A stretch of 64,000 bases of DNA from Escherichia phage vB_EcoM-UFV09: sequence record MZ291552.2; one strand, given 5' to 3'. The notes under the pieces are model-generated. The model saw only the letters and a list, made by a program, of their open reading frames with translations. It had not been told where the DNA came from and did not search any database. Below are positions 4,066 to 44,098 of the stretch, piece after piece. Within the stretch, counting starts at the first letter, position 1. Every line of letters begins with the position of its first letter. The position numbers and the translations under genes are program-made.

Positions 4066-4141
4066 TGGTCGAGGCAGTAGGGATCGAACCTACGACCCAG
4101 GACTTAGAAGGTCCTTGCTCTTCCTTCTGAGCTATGCCCCG
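4066..4141 (-). tRNA. tRNA-Arg (anticodon TCT)
   Basis: Hand-folded cloverleaf: acceptor CGGGGCA with TGCCTCG, anticodon loop CTTCTAA, T-loop TTCGATC, encoded CCA. Confidence 0.8.
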
Positions 4142-4145
4142 TAAT

Positions 4146-4221
4146 TGGGGTGACCGATGGGAGTCGAACCCATGACTACGAGAATCACAATCTCGAGTTC
4201 TACCAACTGAACTACGGCCAC
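4146..4221 (-). tRNA. tRNA-His (anticodon GTG)
   Basis: Hand-folded: acceptor GTGGCCG with CGGTCAC, anticodon loop TTGTGAT, T-loop TTCGACT, CCA. Confidence 0.75.
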
Positions 4222-4335
4222 ATTAATACCTACTCCAACAATCATGATGTCTTCACACGAAATTAAGAGAAGAGTGATCAGTTCAACCCCTATAATCGCG
4301 TCAAGTAGATATTAATGTGACAGTTGTCACAAATT

Positions 4336-4410
4336 TGGCGGACGTGATAGGATTCGAACCTATAACCAATCGCTTAACAGGCGATCGCTCTGCCATTGAG
4401 CTACACATCC
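4336..4410 (-). tRNA. tRNA-Asn (anticodon GTT)
   Basis: Hand-folded: acceptor GGATGTG with CACGTCC, anticodon stem ATCGC/GCGAT with loop CTGTTAA, T-loop TTCGAAT, CCA. Confidence 0.8.
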
Positions 4411-4414
4411 AAAT

Positions 4415-4501
4415 TGGTGGGGAGTGATGGAGTCGAACCACCCGAGTCGCAATGACAATGAATTTACAGTCCACACCGCTACCTCTACGGGATAACTCCC
4501 C
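4415..4501 (-). tRNA. tRNA-Tyr (anticodon GTA), type II with long variable arm
   Basis: 87 nt; acceptor GGGGAGT with ACTCCCC; anticodon loop CTGTAAA; the anticodon stem relies on G-U pairs, so the isotype is less certain. Confidence 0.6.
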
Positions 4502-4507
4502 TTAATT

Positions 4508-4582
4508 TGGTGGCCCTGGGTGGAATTGAACCACCATCTGGCGATTATGAGTCGCTTGCTTGAACCTTCCAGCTACAGGGCC
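4508..4582 (-). tRNA. tRNA with CAT anticodon (Met, or Ile2 if lysidine-modified as in T4)
   Basis: Acceptor GGCCCTG with CAGGGCC, anticodon loop CTCATAA, T-loop TTCAATT; sits between Thr and the next tRNA where T4 has tRNA-Ile. Confidence 0.7.
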
Positions 4583-4583
4583 T

Positions 4584-4659
4584 TGGTGCTGATTGACGGA
4601 ATCGAACCGCCGACATCCTCATTACAAGTGAGGTGCTCTACCTACTGAGCTAAATCAGC
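4584..4659 (-). tRNA. tRNA-Thr (anticodon TGT)
   Basis: Acceptor GCTGATT with AATCAGC, anticodon stem CCTCA/TGAGG with loop CTTGTAA. Confidence 0.8.
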
Positions 4660-4664
4660 AAAGC

Positions 4665-4754
4665 TGGCGGAGGCGATAGGATTTGAACCTATGAATCGCC
4701 GGAGCGACTGCCGGTTTTCAAGACCGGTGCATTAAACCACTCTGCCACGCCTCC
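4665..4754 (-). tRNA. tRNA-Ser (anticodon TGA), type II
   Basis: 90 nt; acceptor GGAGGCG with CGCCTCC, anticodon stem CCGGT/ACCGG with loop CTTGAAA, long variable arm. Confidence 0.8.
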
Positions 4755-4756
4755 AG

Positions 4757-4830
4757 TCTCCATACAAGGATTTGAACCTTGGACCTCCTGATCCCAAATC
4801 AGGCGCTCTACCAAACTGAGCTACACGGAG
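4757..4830 (-). tRNA. tRNA-Pro (anticodon TGG)
   Basis: Acceptor CTCCGTG with TATGGAG (two G-U pairs), anticodon loop TTTGGGA; CCA not encoded. Confidence 0.75.
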
Positions 4831-4840
4831 TAAATTAAAT

Positions 4841-4914
<74 letters not shown>

Positions 4915-4919
4915 AAATT

Positions 4920-5006
4920 TGGTGCGAGAAGTGGGACTCGAACCCACAAGGAAATCATTCCGCAGCATTTTAAGTGCTGTGCCTTTACCAATTTGACCAT
5001 TCTCGC
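4920..5006 (-). tRNA. tRNA-Leu (anticodon TAA), type II
   Basis: 87 nt; acceptor GCGAGAA with TTCTCGC, anticodon stem CAGCA/TGCTG with loop CTTAAAA. Confidence 0.8.
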
Positions 5007-5007
5007 G

Positions 5008-5080
5008 CTGGGAATAAAGGATTCGAACCTTTGCATCTAGCAGTCAAAGTGCTATGCCTTACCAACTTGGCTAATTCCCA
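5008..5080 (-). tRNA. tRNA-Gln (anticodon TTG)
   Basis: Acceptor TGGGAAT with ATTCCCA, anticodon stem TAGCA/TGCTA with loop CTTTGAC; 1-nt gap to tRNA-Leu, as in the T4 Gln-Leu dimeric precursor. Confidence 0.75.
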
Positions 5081-11013: not shown

Positions 11014-12724
11014 TAACCTTAATTGGTTTGTTGGTGTTGTTGAAGATAGAATGGACCCATTAAAATTAGGTCGTGTTCGTGTTCGTGTGGTTGGTCTGCA
11101 TCCACCACAAAGAGCACAAGGTGATGTAATGGGTATTCCAACTGAAAAATTGCCATGGATGTCAGTTATTCAGCCTATAACTTCGGCAGCTATGTCTGGA
11201 ATTGGAGGTTCCGTTACTGGACCGGTAGAAGGAACTAGAGTTTATGGTCATTTTTTGGACAAATGGAAAACTAATGGAATTGTTCTTGGCACGTATGGTG
11301 GAATAGTTCGCGAAAAACCGAATAGACTTGAAGGATTTTCTGACCCGACTGGGCAATATCCTAGACGTTTAGGAAATGATACTAACGTACTAAACCAAGG
11401 CGGAGAAGTAGGATATGATTCGTCTTCTAACATTATCCAAGATAGTAACTTAGACACTGCAATAAATCCTGATGATAGACCACTATCAGAGATTCCAACT
11501 GATGATAATCCAAATATGTCAATGGCTGAAATGCTTCGCCGTGATGAAGGATTAAGACTAAAAGTTTATTGGGATACCGAAGGATATCCGACAATTGGTA
11601 TTGGTCATCTTATCATGAAGCAGCCAGTTCGTGATATGGCTCAAATTAATAAAGTTTTATCGAAACAAGTTGGTCGTGAAATTACTGGAAACCCAGGTTC
11701 TATTACAATGGAAGAAGCGGTAACTTTATTTGAACGCGATTTGGCTGATATGCAACGTGACATTAAATCACATTCTAAAGTAGGACCAGTCTGGCAAGCT
11801 GTCAACCGTTCTCGTCAAATGGCATTAGAAAATATGGCATTTCAGATGGGTGTTGGCGGTGTAGCTAAATTTAACACAATGTTAACTGCTATGTTAGCAG
11901 GAGATTGGGAAAAAGCATATAAAGCTGGTCGTGATTCATTGTGGTATCAACAAACAAAAGGCCGTGCATCCCGTGTTACCATGATTATTCTTACGGGGAA
12001 TTTGGAATCATATGGTGTTGAAGTGAAAACTCCAGCTAGGTCTTTGTCGGCAATGGCTGCTACTGTGGCGAAGTCTTCTGATCCAGCTGACCCTCCTATT
12101 CCAAATGACTCAAGAATTTTATTCAAAGAACCAGTTTCTTCATATAAAGGCGAATATCCTTATGTGCATACAATGGAAACTGAAAGTGGACATATTCAGG
12201 AATTTGATGATACCCCTGGGCAAGAACGATATAGATTAGTTCATCCAACTGGAACTTATGAAGAAGTATCACCGTCAGGGAGAAGAACAAGAAAAACTGT
12301 TGATAATTTGTATGATATAACCAACGCTGATGGTAATTTTTTGGTAGCCGGTGATAAAAAGACTAACGTCGGTGGTTCAGAAATTTATTATAACATGGAT
12401 AATCGTCTTCACCAAATAGATGGAAGCAATACAATATTTGTACGTGGCGATGAAACTAAGACGGTTGAAGGTAATGGAACTATCCTAGTTAAAGGTAATG
12501 TTACTATTGTAGTTGAAGGTAATGCTGACATTACAGTTAAAGGAGATGCTACTACGTTAGTTGAAGGTAATCAAACTAATACAGTAAATGGAAATCTTTC
12601 TTGGAAAGTTGCTGGGACAGTTGATTGGGACGTTGGTGGTGATTGGACAGAAAAAATGGCATCTATGAGTTCTATTTCATCTGGTCAATACACAATTGAT
12701 GGATCGAGGATTGACATTGGCTAA
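10997..12724 (+). CDS. 5: gp5 baseplate hub with tail lysozyme and beta-helical needle
   Basis: 575 aa; N-terminus MEMISNNLNWFVGVVEDRMDP; central lysozyme segment (DTEGYPTIGIGH); C-terminal VEGN/VKGD octapeptide repeats. Confidence 0.97.
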   Translation: MEMISNNLNWFVGVVEDRMDPLKLGRVRVRVVGLHPPQRAQGDVMGIPTEKLPWMSVIQPITSAAMSGIGGSVTGPVEGTRVYGHFLDKWKTNGIVLGTYGGIVREKPNRLEGFSDPTGQYPRRLGNDTNVLNQGGEVGYDSSSNIIQDSNLDTAINPDDRPLSEIPTDDNPNMSMAEMLRRDEGLRLKVYWDTEGYPTIGIGHLIMKQPVRDMAQINKVLSKQVGREITGNPGSITMEEAVTLFERDLADMQRDIKSHSKVGPVWQAVNRSRQMALENMAFQMGVGGVAKFNTMLTAMLAGDWEKAYKAGRDSLWYQQTKGRASRVTMIILTGNLESYGVEVKTPARSLSAMAATVAKSSDPADPPIPNDSRILFKEPVSSYKGEYPYVHTMETESGHIQEFDDTPGQERYRLVHPTGTYEEVSPSGRRTRKTVDNLYDITNADGNFLVAGDKKTNVGGSEIYYNMDNRLHQIDGSNTIFVRGDETKTVEGNGTILVKGNVTIVVEGNADITVKGDATTLVEGNQTNTVNGNLSWKVAGTVDWDVGGDWTEKMASMSSISSGQYTIDGSRIDIG

Positions 12725-18633: not shown

Positions 18634-19630
18634 TTCAAGTGTTATCTATCGTGCGATAGTTACTTCAAAATTTAGAACAGAAAAAATGTTGAATTTTTAT
18701 AATTCAATTGGAAGTGGTCCGGATAAAAACACTATCTTTATCACATTTGGAAGATCAGAACCGTGGTCATCAAATGAAAATGAGGTGGGCTTTGCCCCAC
18801 CTTATCCTACCGATTCTGTATTAGGTGTAACTGACATGTGGACTCATATGATGGGAACAGTAAAAGTTCTTCCATCAATGCTTGATGCTGTTATTCCTCG
18901 CAGAGATTGGGGAGATACTAGATATCCGGATCCATACACATTTAGAATTAATGATATTGTAGTGTGCAACTCAGCTCCTTACAACGCTACTGAATCAGGC
19001 GCAGGCTGGTTAGTATATCGTTGTTTAGATGTTCCTGATACCGGAATGTGTTCAATAGCATCTTTAACTAATAAGGATGAATGTCTTAAATTAGGTGGAA
19101 AATGGACTCCTTCTGCTAGGTCAATGACTCCTCCTGAAGGCCGAGGAGATGCTGAAGGAACAATTGAACCTGGCGATGGATATGTATGGGAATATCTTTT
19201 TGAGATTCCGCCTGATGTATCTATAAATAGATGCACGAATGAGTATATTGTAGTTCCTTGGCCTGAGGAATTAAAAGAAGACCCGACTAGATGGGGGTAT
19301 GAAGATAATCTCACTTGGCAGCAAGATGATTTTGGATTAATTTACCGTGTTAAGGCAAATACTATCCGTTTTAAAGCATATTTAGATTCAGTTTATTTTC
19401 CTGAAGCTGCATTGCCGGGAAATAAAGGATTTAGACAAATATCAATAATTACGAATCCTCTTGAAGCTAAAGCTCATCCAAATGACCCAAATGTTAAAGC
19501 TGAAAAGGATTATTATGATCCGGAAGATTTAATGAGGCATTCGGGCGAAATGATTTATATGGAAAATAGGCCACCTATTATTATGGCAATGGATCAGACA
19601 GAAGAAATCAATATTCTGTTTACATTTTAA
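18626..19630 (+). CDS. 8: gp8 baseplate wedge protein
   Basis: 334 aa; T4 order. Confidence 0.97.
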   Translation: MNDSSVIYRAIVTSKFRTEKMLNFYNSIGSGPDKNTIFITFGRSEPWSSNENEVGFAPPYPTDSVLGVTDMWTHMMGTVKVLPSMLDAVIPRRDWGDTRYPDPYTFRINDIVVCNSAPYNATESGAGWLVYRCLDVPDTGMCSIASLTNKDECLKLGGKWTPSARSMTPPEGRGDAEGTIEPGDGYVWEYLFEIPPDVSINRCTNEYIVVPWPEELKEDPTRWGYEDNLTWQQDDFGLIYRVKANTIRFKAYLDSVYFPEAALPGNKGFRQISIITNPLEAKAHPNDPNVKAEKDYYDPEDLMRHSGEMIYMENRPPIIMAMDQTEEINILFTF

Positions 19631-23024: not shown

Positions 23025-24571
23025 GTAACAATACATATCAGCACGTATCAAATGAATCAAAATACGTTAAATTCGATCCTGCAGGATCGAATTTTCCTGA
23101 CACTGTCACGACAGTGCAGTCAGCATTATCAAAAATAAGTAATATCGGCGTAAATGGTATTCCTGATGCAACTATGGAAGTTAAAGGAATAGCAATGATT
23201 GCATCGGAGCAAGAGGTTTTAGATGGAACTAATAATTCTAAAATCGTTACACCAGCTACATTAGCAACAAGATTATTGTATCCAAATGCTACTGAAACTA
23301 AATATGGATTAACGCGCTATTCAACAAATGAAGAAACTTTAGAAGGCTCAGATAATAATTCATCAATAACGCCGCAAAAACTGAAATACCATACTGACGA
23401 TGTATTCCAAAATAGGTATTCATCTGAATCATCAAATGGAGTTATTAAAATATCATCTACTCCTGCGGCTTTGGCTGGTATAGATGATACTACGGCGATG
23501 ACTCCGTTGAAAACCCAAAAACTCGCAATAAAATTAATTTCGCAAATAGCTCCTTCAGAAGACACAGCATCAGAATCTGTTAGAGGTGTAGTTCAGTTAT
23601 CAACTGTCGCTCAAACTCGTCAAGGAACTCTCCGCGAAGGATATGCAATTTCTCCGTATACCTTTATGAATTCTGTTGCAACACAAGAATATAAGGGTGT
23701 TATACGTTTAGGAACACAATCAGAAATTAACAGTAATTTGGGAGATGTTGCAGTAACAGGTGAAACATTAAATGGTCGAGGAGCTACCGGTTCTATGCGT
23801 GGGGTAGTAAAATTAACGACGCAAGCCGGTATTGCCCCTGAAGGTGATAGCTCTGGAGCATTAGCATGGAACGCAGATGTAATTAATACTCGCGGTGGAC
23901 AAACTATTAATGGTTCTTTAAATTTAGATCATTTAACAGCAAATGGAATTTGGTCGCGCGGCGGAATGTGGAAAAATGGCGATCAACCTGTTGCCACTGA
24001 AAGATATGCGTCCGAAAGGGTTCCAGTTGGAACTATTATGATGTTTGCTGGAGATTCAGCTCCTCCTGGTTGGATTATGTGTCATGGTGGAACCGTGTCA
24101 GGAGATCAATATCCTGATTATAGAAACACAGTTGGAACGAGATTTGGTGGCGATTGGAATAATCCTGGCATTCCTGATATGCGAGGTCTTTTCGTCAGAG
24201 GAGCTGGTACTGGTGGTCATATTTTAAATCAACGAGGGCAAGATGGTTACGGGAAGGATAGACTTGGTGTAGGATGTGACGGAATGCATGTTGGCGGTGT
24301 TCAAGCACAACAGATGTCATACCATAAACATGCTGGTGGTTGGGGAGAATACCAAAGACATGAAGCTCCATTTGGCGCGTCCGTTTATCAAGGATATCTT
24401 GGAACTGGAAAACATGCCGACTGGGATAATGCTTCATACTTCACTAATGATGGATTTGAATTAGGTGGACCGAGAGATGCCCTTGGTACACTTAATCGTG
24501 AAGGATTAATTGGTTATGAAACTAGACCATGGAATATATCATTAAACTATATTATTAAAATTCATTACTAA
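23021..24571 (+). CDS. 12: gp12 short tail fibre
   Basis: 516 aa; T4 order. Confidence 0.97.
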
Positions 24572-41850: not shown

Positions 41851-41939
41851 GTTATTGAGTTGGTGCCATTATATACATCGTTTTCTGATTGTGTTTTGTG
41901 TGCTTTCAAAATGAAGAAAGGGGCCGAAGCCCCTTACGA

Positions 41940-43358
41940 TTATGGATAGGTATAGATGATACCAGTTTCTAAAGCTGTTTTGTGAATGATGTATCCATTA
42001 CGCGATTCTTGGACATCAACTTCTGGATAGTCTTTCATCATCTTCTGAAGCGTATAACGATGCAAGTAGTACTTACTATCTGGGTCGTCAGTTTTCCAAT
42101 CTTTACCTTCTTCAGTCATTTTTTGGATTTCATCCATAACCCACCAACCGCACCAGATATAAGCTGAAGTACGGTGCGGAAGAGGATGAACATAAGGCAA
42201 TTCACCTTCTGGTTCTGGAGCAACTTTATCAGTCACTTGAACTTGACCTGTTGTTTTAACTGTTTTGCTATCATAATCAGTTGCTGTAACGACAGCAGTA
42301 ACTTCAATAGTTTGACTTCCAACAGATGAGGTATCGACAGTATATACGTTAGTTGACCCTTCTACAGGAGAAGAATCTTTCTTCCACGAGTAAGTAATTT
42401 GTGCTTCTTCTGGAGCATCCGTAACATTAGCAGTAAATGTAGCCGAAGCATCTTGCTGAACGTTAATAGAAGGAGGAGTCAATGTAACCTGTGGATTCAT
42501 TGTCTTCTTATTAACTGTCAATGATACTTCATTAGAAGTAACTTCCTTTTCATTGTAATTTTCTGCTGTTACTTGGGCTACGCATTTAATTCTTTTTACT
42601 CCACTTGTAGTTGGAGTATAGCTAAATGTAGAGTTAGTTTCTCCACCAACTTGTGAATCATCTACATACCATTTATATGTAGCAGACGCTCCATCAGGTT
42701 GAGAAGCTAAGGCAGCAGTAAATTGAACTGGGGTTCCAATTACTCCAGCTGAAGGACTAGCAGGAGTTACTGCCAATGTAGTTGTCTGTGTCTTTTTATT
42801 AACAGTCAGTGATACTTCATTCGAAGTAACGGTTTTTTCATCATAATTTGTCGCGGTTACTTGAGCTACACACTTGATTTTTTTAACTCCGCTTGCGGCA
42901 GGAGTGTAATTGAATGTAGCAGAAGTCGCTTCGTCTACAGGAGAACTGTCAACGTACCATTGATACGTAGCAGATGCACCTGATGGCTGCGAAGCTAAAG
43001 CAGCGGTAAATTTAACAGCTGTTCCAATTACTCCTGCTGGAGGACTATTGGGAGTTACGGCTAAGGTAGTCGTCTGAGTTTTGTTTTTGACTGTGATAGT
43101 TGTAGTAGCTTCTGCTGTTTCAGCTTCAGATTCTGGAACTGTATTTGTTGCAACAACTTTAATAGTCTTTTAACCAGCAGGACCTTTTAATACATAATCA
43201 AAAGTTGCTTCAGACCCATCTTGTGGAGCATTATCTACACTCCAAGCATAAGTAATAGTTCCACCTCCAGTTTCACCACTGGGTGCAGCAGTAAACTGCT
43301 TGGTTTCATCAATAACTCCTGACGGTGCTTTAGGAGTTATATCAACTGTAAAAGCCAT
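41940..43358 (-). pseudogene. hoc: hoc outer capsid decoration protein, interrupted by an in-frame TAA at codon 63 and carrying an extra Ig-like domain
   Basis: One continuous minus-strand frame from the ATG at 43358 to the stop at 41940, with a TAA at 43170-43172 where the T4 sequence as I recall it has Gln; translation on both sides is Hoc (MAFTVDITPK... and ...LAVTPASPSAGVIG...YTYP). Confidence 0.85.
42504..43079 (-). repeat. Diverged 2 x 288-bp tandem duplication inside hoc (duplicated Ig-like domain)
   Basis: Two consecutive 96-codon units both start TQTTTLAVTP and end EVSLTVNKK; the T4 Hoc sequence I recall has this unit once. Confidence 0.8.
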
Positions 43359-43367
43359 AAGTTATCC

Positions 43368-44048
43368 TTATTTTAATGTTACGAAAGAAGAATTGCGTGT
43401 TTCACGAATTAAAACTGATCCGTCGCGATTAATGTAATAAATTAAGCTAAACAAAGTTTGGTGTGCTGACGCGTGTTCAAAACTAGTTGGATGAGATTTC
43501 CAATCAGGAGTTTCAGCGATCCATTGATAAATCCACCAAGGAACCGTACAGAATCCTGGATTTTTCCCCAATAATTGAAGATTCGGGCTAAAGTTTTCCG
43601 GAAGAGTAAATACAGACGGCTTTTCAGATTCAATAATCTCAGCTACAGCTTGTTCAAACTTTTCTTCAACAAAAGGAGTGTCTTCAATCAAAACATCAGT
43701 ATTTTCAGGAATTTTATCCGTTTCTACAACTTCAATTTTAATATCAGATTTAACTGGAGAATCAATCAGAAGCGCTGCTTCTGGATTAACTTCTTCATCG
43801 TCATATTTTAATCCCTCTGCAGCATCAGCAGCATCAATTAAGTCTTTAATAGATAACCCATCAGTCTCTGGCATAGGTTCACTAGCGAGCTTCTGGAGGG
43901 CTTCTTCAATATCAACAACGATATTATCAAAAGATTTATTCTTTTTGACCTTTATACCAAACTGTTCAGCATATTCAGCTAATTTAGCTTTAGCTTCTTT
44001 ATTATCATCAAGAGCCTTCAGCTCTGCAATATAATCTTTATCTATCAT
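43368..44048 (-). CDS. inh: Inh, inhibitor of the prohead protease gp21
   Basis: 226 aa, acidic; position between hoc and uvsW. Confidence 0.85.
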   Translation of the reverse strand: MIDKDYIAELKALDDNKEAKAKLAEYAEQFGIKVKKNKSFDNIVVDIEEALQKLASEPMPETDGLSIKDLIDAADAAEGLKYDDEEVNPEAALLIDSPVKSDIKIEVVETDKIPENTDVLIEDTPFVEEKFEQAVAEIIESEKPSVFTLPENFSPNLQLLGKNPGFCTVPWWIYQWIAETPDWKSHPTSFEHASAHQTLFSLIYYINRDGSVLIRETRNSSFVTLK

Positions 44049-44069: not shown

Positions 44070-44098
44070 TAGATATATTTATTACATGGTATTTAGAC

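Follow-up and report, generated by a model that had tools for sequence, protein, structure and literature searches.

A private ochre codon in hoc and the predicted loss of Hoc from the virion of a wastewater Tequatrovirus

The hoc gene and its interruption

The window analyzed here is a stretch of 64 kb that corresponds, with 0 differences, to positions 64089–128088 of Escherichia phage vB_EcoM-UFV10 (OP555981.1), a Brazilian wastewater isolate of the genus Tequatrovirus. Its minus strand carries a hoc reading frame of 473 codons (41940–43358), which runs from an ATG at 43358–43356 to the natural TAA stop at 41942–41940 and comprises 472 sense-codon positions with one interruption, at codon 63. 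As in T4 and phage ECP52, the frame lies between inh and the DUF2774 gene/RNA ligase 2 gene; inh, which encodes the prohead protease inhibitor, is located immediately upstream of hoc in UFV10, ECP52 and T4. The product of hoc is the highly immunogenic outer capsid protein.

The signals flanking the frame are in place. The Shine-Dalgarno sequence of hoc (AAGGA; 43365–43369, minus strand) is intact and overlaps the stop codon of inh, and its duplex with the anti-Shine-Dalgarno sequence, at −6.0 kcal/mol, is the best among all in-frame starts. Directly after the natural hoc stop there is an intrinsic terminator hairpin (41918–41935, minus strand) with a 7-bp stem, 5 GC pairs and a T-rich tail. 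Because hoc thus ends its transcription unit, no polar effect on downstream genes is expected, and nonsense polarity was discounted on these grounds. The late-promoter core TATAAATA occurs 24 times in the whole window versus 9.6 times expected, a count reached by 0 of 100 shuffles; such an excess is as expected for a T4-like late-gene region. Directly ahead of inh-hoc, the minus strand showed no exact copy of this core; a one-mismatch version, AATAAATA, is present there, near 44076–44083.

Alignment to T4 Hoc supports the assignment of the gene as hoc in the first-pass annotation: the two proteins are 91% identical in amino-acid sequence over shared columns, and their C-terminal 72 residues are the same. 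The capsid-binding domain of T4 Hoc comprises residues 281–376 (PMC10385173). Codons 377–472 of the present gene (41943–42230, minus strand) align to this segment with near-identity; they lie downstream of the premature stop and would hence be lost. The gene is longer than its T4 counterpart (472 versus 376 codons), with a 96-residue insertion relative to T4 and four Ig-like domains versus three in T4. The extra domain stems from a 288-nt tandem duplication (42501–43076, minus strand), whose two copies, 75% identical to one another, correspond to two adjacent Ig-like domains. This long form of hoc is also found in ECP52 and SfPhi01, and probably in other full-length one-piece matches such as ECO4 and Sf23; T4/RB-type phages have a single copy. 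In a Pfam search of Hoc, a PKD match passed its cutoff (E = 4e-10), and the weaker Ig_2/Ig_3 matches fell below theirs. Every defining feature of hoc that was tested, namely the binding domain, the Ig-like/PKD string and the inh neighbor, is encoded in the complete frame or lies next to it.

The interruption is an ochre codon, TAA, at codon 63 (43170–43172, minus strand), and the ancestral state is CAA (Gln). This TAA is the sole internal stop of the frame, which bears out the earlier description of the frame from 43358 to 41940 as continuous except for one TAA at 43170–43172. The Gln residue given in the first-pass annotation for codon 63 of T4 Hoc is indeed found there, in the context GPAGQKTIKVV, in both T4 (NC_000866.4) and ECP52. 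A single C-to-T change from CAA suffices to create the stop, as had been proposed, and CAA is the codon read in UFV05, UFV06 and ECP52. The lesion is therefore a C-to-T transition at Gln63, and it lies outside any homopolymer run.

The sole open reading frame expected from the hoc start (43170–43358, minus strand) encodes a 62-residue N-terminal fragment, which covers about two thirds of Ig-like domain 1 and lacks the capsid-binding domain. The predicted truncation after 62 residues matches the deposited proteins: a look-up in ∼15 billion proteins returned the exact 62-residue product for UFV10, UFV11 and UFV09. Apart from this stop, which precedes the capsid-binding domain, the gene is intact. 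Codons 64–472 (41943–43169, minus strand), which ribosomes entering at the hoc start would no longer reach, form a fully open and conserved frame; all 409 codons 3' of the premature stop are open, a state seen in 0 of 5000 shuffles of that stretch and expected at random with a probability of ∼3e-9. Since the post-stop frame is still open and conserved, the pseudogene is young.

In the deposited UFV10 annotation, the broken gene appears as two 'capsid and scaffold protein' open reading frames together with spurious small ones. The latter include 'hypothetical protein' frames at window positions 42861–42983 (plus strand) and 43061–43156 (minus strand), which arose when the gene caller filled the space that the premature stop had opened in the annotation. 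Automated annotation thus hid the loss of hoc.

Distribution of the ochre allele and the translation of its message

A 61-mer centered on the stop and containing the TAA was found exactly in only two of 50,697 phage records, those of UFV10 and UFV11. Another 36 records match this stretch at lower identity, and the ten of them that are listed differ by one base. Codon 63 is CAA in T4, in UFV05 and UFV06, and in ECP52, the closest intact relative. Comparison with the closest relatives, which the first-pass annotation had proposed, thus indicates that the stop is a derived and recent change, private to one clone.

The phage collection holds three near-identical siblings of UFV10, namely UFV11, UFV05 and UFV06. 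The four sibling genomes were assembled from the collection and compared genome-wide. Three of them contain an exact 99-bp tandem duplication, each at a different site (record positions 11793–11990 in UFV10, 55601 in UFV11 and 83384 in UFV06); there is none in UFV05. The duplications artificially add 33 codons to an ADP-ribosyltransferase gene, a small open reading frame and a gp8-like baseplate gene; the UFV10 copy lies outside the window. Most likely, they are assembler end-overlaps kept after re-orientation of the contig. As exact tandem duplications placed differently in each assembly, they were rejected as real indels. The gp8-like baseplate wedge gene shows one further difference, at window position 19478, where an in-frame duplication of 9 bp (CCAAATGAC) in UFV05 falls exactly into the stretch that is 99-bp-duplicated in UFV06; it may be real or related to the assembly artefact.

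The presence of such artefacts lends some substance to the idea that the TAA stems from faulty sequencing, an option named in the first-pass annotation, or from faulty assembly, and that the real phage reads CAA and has an intact hoc. We consider this highly unlikely. The lesion is a substitution outside homopolymers, and the same TAA occurs in UFV10 and UFV11 and also in UFV09. Because the 99-bp artefact sits at a different site in each, the UFV assemblies were made separately, so that UFV10 and UFV11 document the base in assemblies with different artefacts. The sister assemblies of UFV05 and UFV06, which come from the same submitters, read CAA and carry a different hoc lesion; a systematic platform error is therefore excluded. 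Moreover, every long essential structural gene of the window has its normal length in the annotation, as judged against the lengths of the T4 genes. One clone may have been isolated repeatedly as UFV09, UFV10 and UFV11, and the shared TAA therefore confirms the base call and is no proof of independent origin. A phase-variable (contingency) locus was also considered and rejected, given that the UFV10 lesion is a substitution and that UFV05/UFV06 have lost a single A between C and G.

A genuine stop codon could still be bypassed. T4-type phages bear tRNA genes, from which the classical T4 suppressor mutants arise, and a gene for a 'modifier of suppressor tRNAs' is annotated in the record, outside the window; an ochre suppressor tRNA or programmed read-through might thus yield useful amounts of full-length Hoc. 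The sole tRNA cluster (4066–5080, minus strand) comprises 11 genes (Arg, His, Asn, Tyr, Met, Thr, Ser, Pro, Gly, Leu and Gln), more than the 8 tRNA genes of T4. All 11 have ordinary anticodons, and none of them, in the window or in the whole UFV10 genome, has an ochre-reading anticodon (TTA); that of tRNA-Gln is TTG. UAA is the stop that is read most efficiently in E. coli. No stimulatory RNA structure was seen 3' of the stop, where the 96 nt counted from the stop gave z = −1.04, with 26 of 200 shuffles folding at least as well. The stop is private to one clone and not conserved, which rules out recoding, and the sister clade knocks out hoc by a frameshift that is beyond rescue by read-through. 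The proviso of suppression or read-through attached to the first-pass annotation accordingly finds no support, and we regard this route to full-length Hoc as extremely unlikely.

Translation might also restart within the gene. This would give an N-terminally truncated 'mini-Hoc' that places the capsid-binding domain at the hexamer centers and lacks the Ig-like fiber; short natural Hoc-like proteins with few Ig domains are known from other phages (PMC10385173). For all in-frame ATG, GTG and TTG codons beyond the stop, pairing with the anti-Shine-Dalgarno sequence was scored. The first in-frame start, TTG at codon 195, has no Shine-Dalgarno sequence and is 132 codons away, which is too far for termination-coupled re-initiation. 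Weak Shine-Dalgarno-like sequences precede TTG at codon 387 (−4.0 kcal/mol), located at the beginning of the capsid-binding domain, and ATG at codon 408 (−4.9 kcal/mol), as compared to −6.0 kcal/mol for the native start; none of the in-frame candidates after the stop equals the native site. The candidate starts are equally present in intact hoc genes, where they are not known to be starts, and initiation at codon 408 would drop conserved aromatic residues of the binding domain. A mini-Hoc on the capsid is therefore very unlikely.

Parallel lesions in the sister clade

UFV05 and UFV06 have kept CAA at codon 63 and have lost hoc in another way. A 1-bp deletion at codon 27 results in a 40-residue product; the deleted base, an A on the coding strand, corresponds to position 43280 (minus strand) and is intact in this window. 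The lesion of the sister clade is hence a −1 frameshift at codon 27, that of UFV10 a substitution at codon 63. Because the undeleted state at codon 27 is found exactly in 21 other records, the deletion is derived. This independent knockout is the new element of the present comparison.

Genome-wide, UFV10 and UFV11 are separated from UFV05 and UFV06 by 9 fixed differences, including the 2 alternative hoc lesions; between UFV10 and UFV11 there are 2 SNPs. Changes were assigned to branches by short-query polarization. Derived on the UFV10/UFV11 branch are the change of hoc Gln63 to a stop, two changes in mrh, one in motA, one synonymous change in an alt-like gene and probably also one synonymous change in the alpha-glucosyltransferase gene. 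The hoc frameshift and two gp12 changes are derived on the UFV05/UFV06 branch. Since both hoc lesions are derived, hoc was intact in the common ancestor and was broken separately on each branch. At codon 51 of the motA-like gene (UFV10 record position 159936, outside the window), UFV10/UFV11 have Asn and UFV05/UFV06 have Ser. The Asn51 allele was found exactly in 0 of 468 other records with that stretch; by this comparison, the middle-transcription activator changed on the branch that also acquired the hoc stop.

Under uniform placement, the probability that at least two of nine differences fall into a gene that makes up 0.86% of the genome is P = 0.0025. A more conservative null model, in which knockouts fall only in the non-essential half or so of the genome, gives by rough estimate a P of a few percent; it counts three knockouts, the two in hoc and one in rIIA (a 7-bp duplication frameshift in UFV05). 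The rIIA lesion is found in UFV05 alone, where duplication of ACAATCC shifts the frame near record position 1484, outside the window; rIIA is a classic target of rapid-lysis mutations, and the frameshift suggests selection for plaque morphology during handling. Among the siblings, 12 of 15 SNPs are non-synonymous, and seven are located in the receptor-binding fibers gp12 and gp37. The gp12-like short tail fiber gene (plus strand) differs between siblings at 24407, 24413 and 24416, which give G463R, H465Y and A466T near the C-terminal end of the protein; gp37 contains four further non-synonymous sibling differences, outside the window. These fiber SNPs resemble the changes in T4 test-tube evolution, in which gp37 was altered in every replicate and no hoc knockouts arose (PMC9271167).

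These numbers bear on whether the loss of Hoc was selected. The allele could be real and neutral, fixed through relaxed selection and plaque-purification bottlenecks, with the sister lesion a coincidence. Hoc is dispensable in the laboratory (PMC10385173), and deletion of hoc leaves burst size and latent period unchanged (PMC9271167). Nonsense changes make up 4.6% of the possible single substitutions in hoc, and hoc is broken in about 5% of the T4-like records sampled, as expected for a large non-essential mutational target. No documented laboratory advantage of Hoc loss was found in the literature. Against neutrality stand the two independent knockouts of one 1.4-kb gene among the nine fixed differences between the clades (P as given above for the uniform and conservative models), and the remaining differences: they are for the most part non-synonymous, cluster in adsorption genes and thus indicate that selection acted on the clone family. 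On balance, we rate neutrality at somewhat below even odds. Positive selection for Hoc loss in this clone family is plausible, and the evidence for it is at most suggestive. A broader proposal, that isolation and propagation of T4-like phages on certain hosts select positively for Hoc loss and that hoc is a recurrent knockout target like rII, is put forward tentatively as the less probable side of the question. The host behind such selection may have been a biofilm-forming mastitis E. coli, if the phages were grown on the same strain as UFV09 and UFV13.

Broken hoc genes are not confined to the UFV phages. Of the 679 matching records, 60 were sampled at even spacing, and hoc was broken in 3 of them (∼5%). 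Inspection of records whose annotation splits hoc revealed further lesions: a +1 frameshift near codon 253 in SfPhi01; a −1 frameshift at codon 161 in UPWr_E2, the sole listed lesion in an A7 run; a stop in place of Trp307, within the capsid-binding domain, in ECML-134; and two frameshifts in the Mosigvirus a20. Some of these lesions, especially those in homopolymers, may be sequencing errors. Disruption of hoc is an ordinary, recurrent state of cultured T4-like phages.

Consequence for the virion and comparison with known hoc mutants

The mechanism that we propose starts with the C-to-T transition that turned Gln63 (CAA) into an ochre codon (TAA) in hoc, a non-essential head-decoration gene. 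Ribosomes entering at the intact hoc start would stop after 62 residues, within the first Ig-like domain, so that the capsid-binding domain (codons 377–472) would not be made and virions would be assembled without Hoc. Hoc is predicted to be absent from the particle because the product has 62 residues and because neither a suppressor tRNA nor a convincing restart site nor a read-through structure was found. In the recent history of the clone family, loss of Hoc would have been favored or at least unopposed, most plausibly during isolation and propagation on a laboratory host. Taken together, a genuine and recently arisen hoc loss-of-function allele, of natural or laboratory origin, with a predicted Hoc-less virion is the best explanation of the locus, and we hold it to be very likely correct.

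Phages carrying this allele are viable: UFV09, UFV10 and UFV11 have all been cultured, and their genomes are complete. For UFV09, a published study dealt with the optimization of phage production on E. coli 30 (PMC8468216). A literature search on UFV05, UFV06, UFV10 and UFV11 returned nothing; only UFV09 and UFV13 are described.

Hoc lets the capsid adhere to mucus as well as to surfaces of bacteria and mammals. It is also the main target of antibodies raised against T4-type particles and the standard anchor used in T4 phage display. Capsids in this phage family are very probably bare, which would matter for any use of the family in biocontrol; the same laboratory studies the relatives UFV09 and UFV13 for the control of biofilms and mastitis. 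A Hoc-less phage put forward for that purpose would not match its relatives in mucosal retention, immunogenicity or clumping. The parallel knockouts in the sister phages suggest that a check of hoc integrity should be routine for cultured T4-like phages. If positive selection is true, many 'natural' isolates used in therapy or biocontrol would have bare capsids and would no longer reflect the adhesion phenotype of the environmental phage. The codon-63 stop, the codon-27 frameshift and the CAA state, to which the stop can revert in one step, form a natural isogenic set with which a possible cost of Hoc in laboratory propagation can be addressed. The allele is new and the kind of knockout is known, so that the basic understanding of Hoc is unchanged; hoc null mutants have been known for decades.

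Among intact relatives, the Hoc protein of ECP52 has the same length (472 residues) and the same number of domains as that of UFV10, but is uninterrupted at codon 63. In SfPhi01, UPWr_E2, ECML-134, a20 and UFV05/UFV06, hoc is likewise broken in otherwise intact cultured phages, each by a different lesion; the one in UFV10 is distinguished by being a clean substitution that is confirmed in three genomes (UFV09, UFV10 and UFV11).

The closest precedent is the T4 mutant HAP1, in which a spontaneous C496T change in hoc converted Gln166 from CAA to TAA; the end of Hoc incorporation was confirmed, and the phage is viable (PMC3127757; PMC10580926). The two alleles share the gene, the CAA-to-TAA transition and the predicted effect, and in both the stop lies upstream of the capsid-binding domain. 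At the level of sequence, the UFV10 lesion thus corresponds to the definition of a HAP1-type hoc-null nonsense allele, and by analogy we infer a capsid without Hoc in this phage family. The differences concern the position of the stop (codon 166 in HAP1, codon 63 here) and the phage, HAP1 being a laboratory T4 and UFV10 a wastewater Tequatrovirus isolate with a 472-residue, four-Ig-domain Hoc. Furthermore, HAP1 came out of a deliberate selection, and no such step is on record for UFV10; the absence of Hoc that was seen experimentally in HAP1 is, in UFV10, predicted from sequence.
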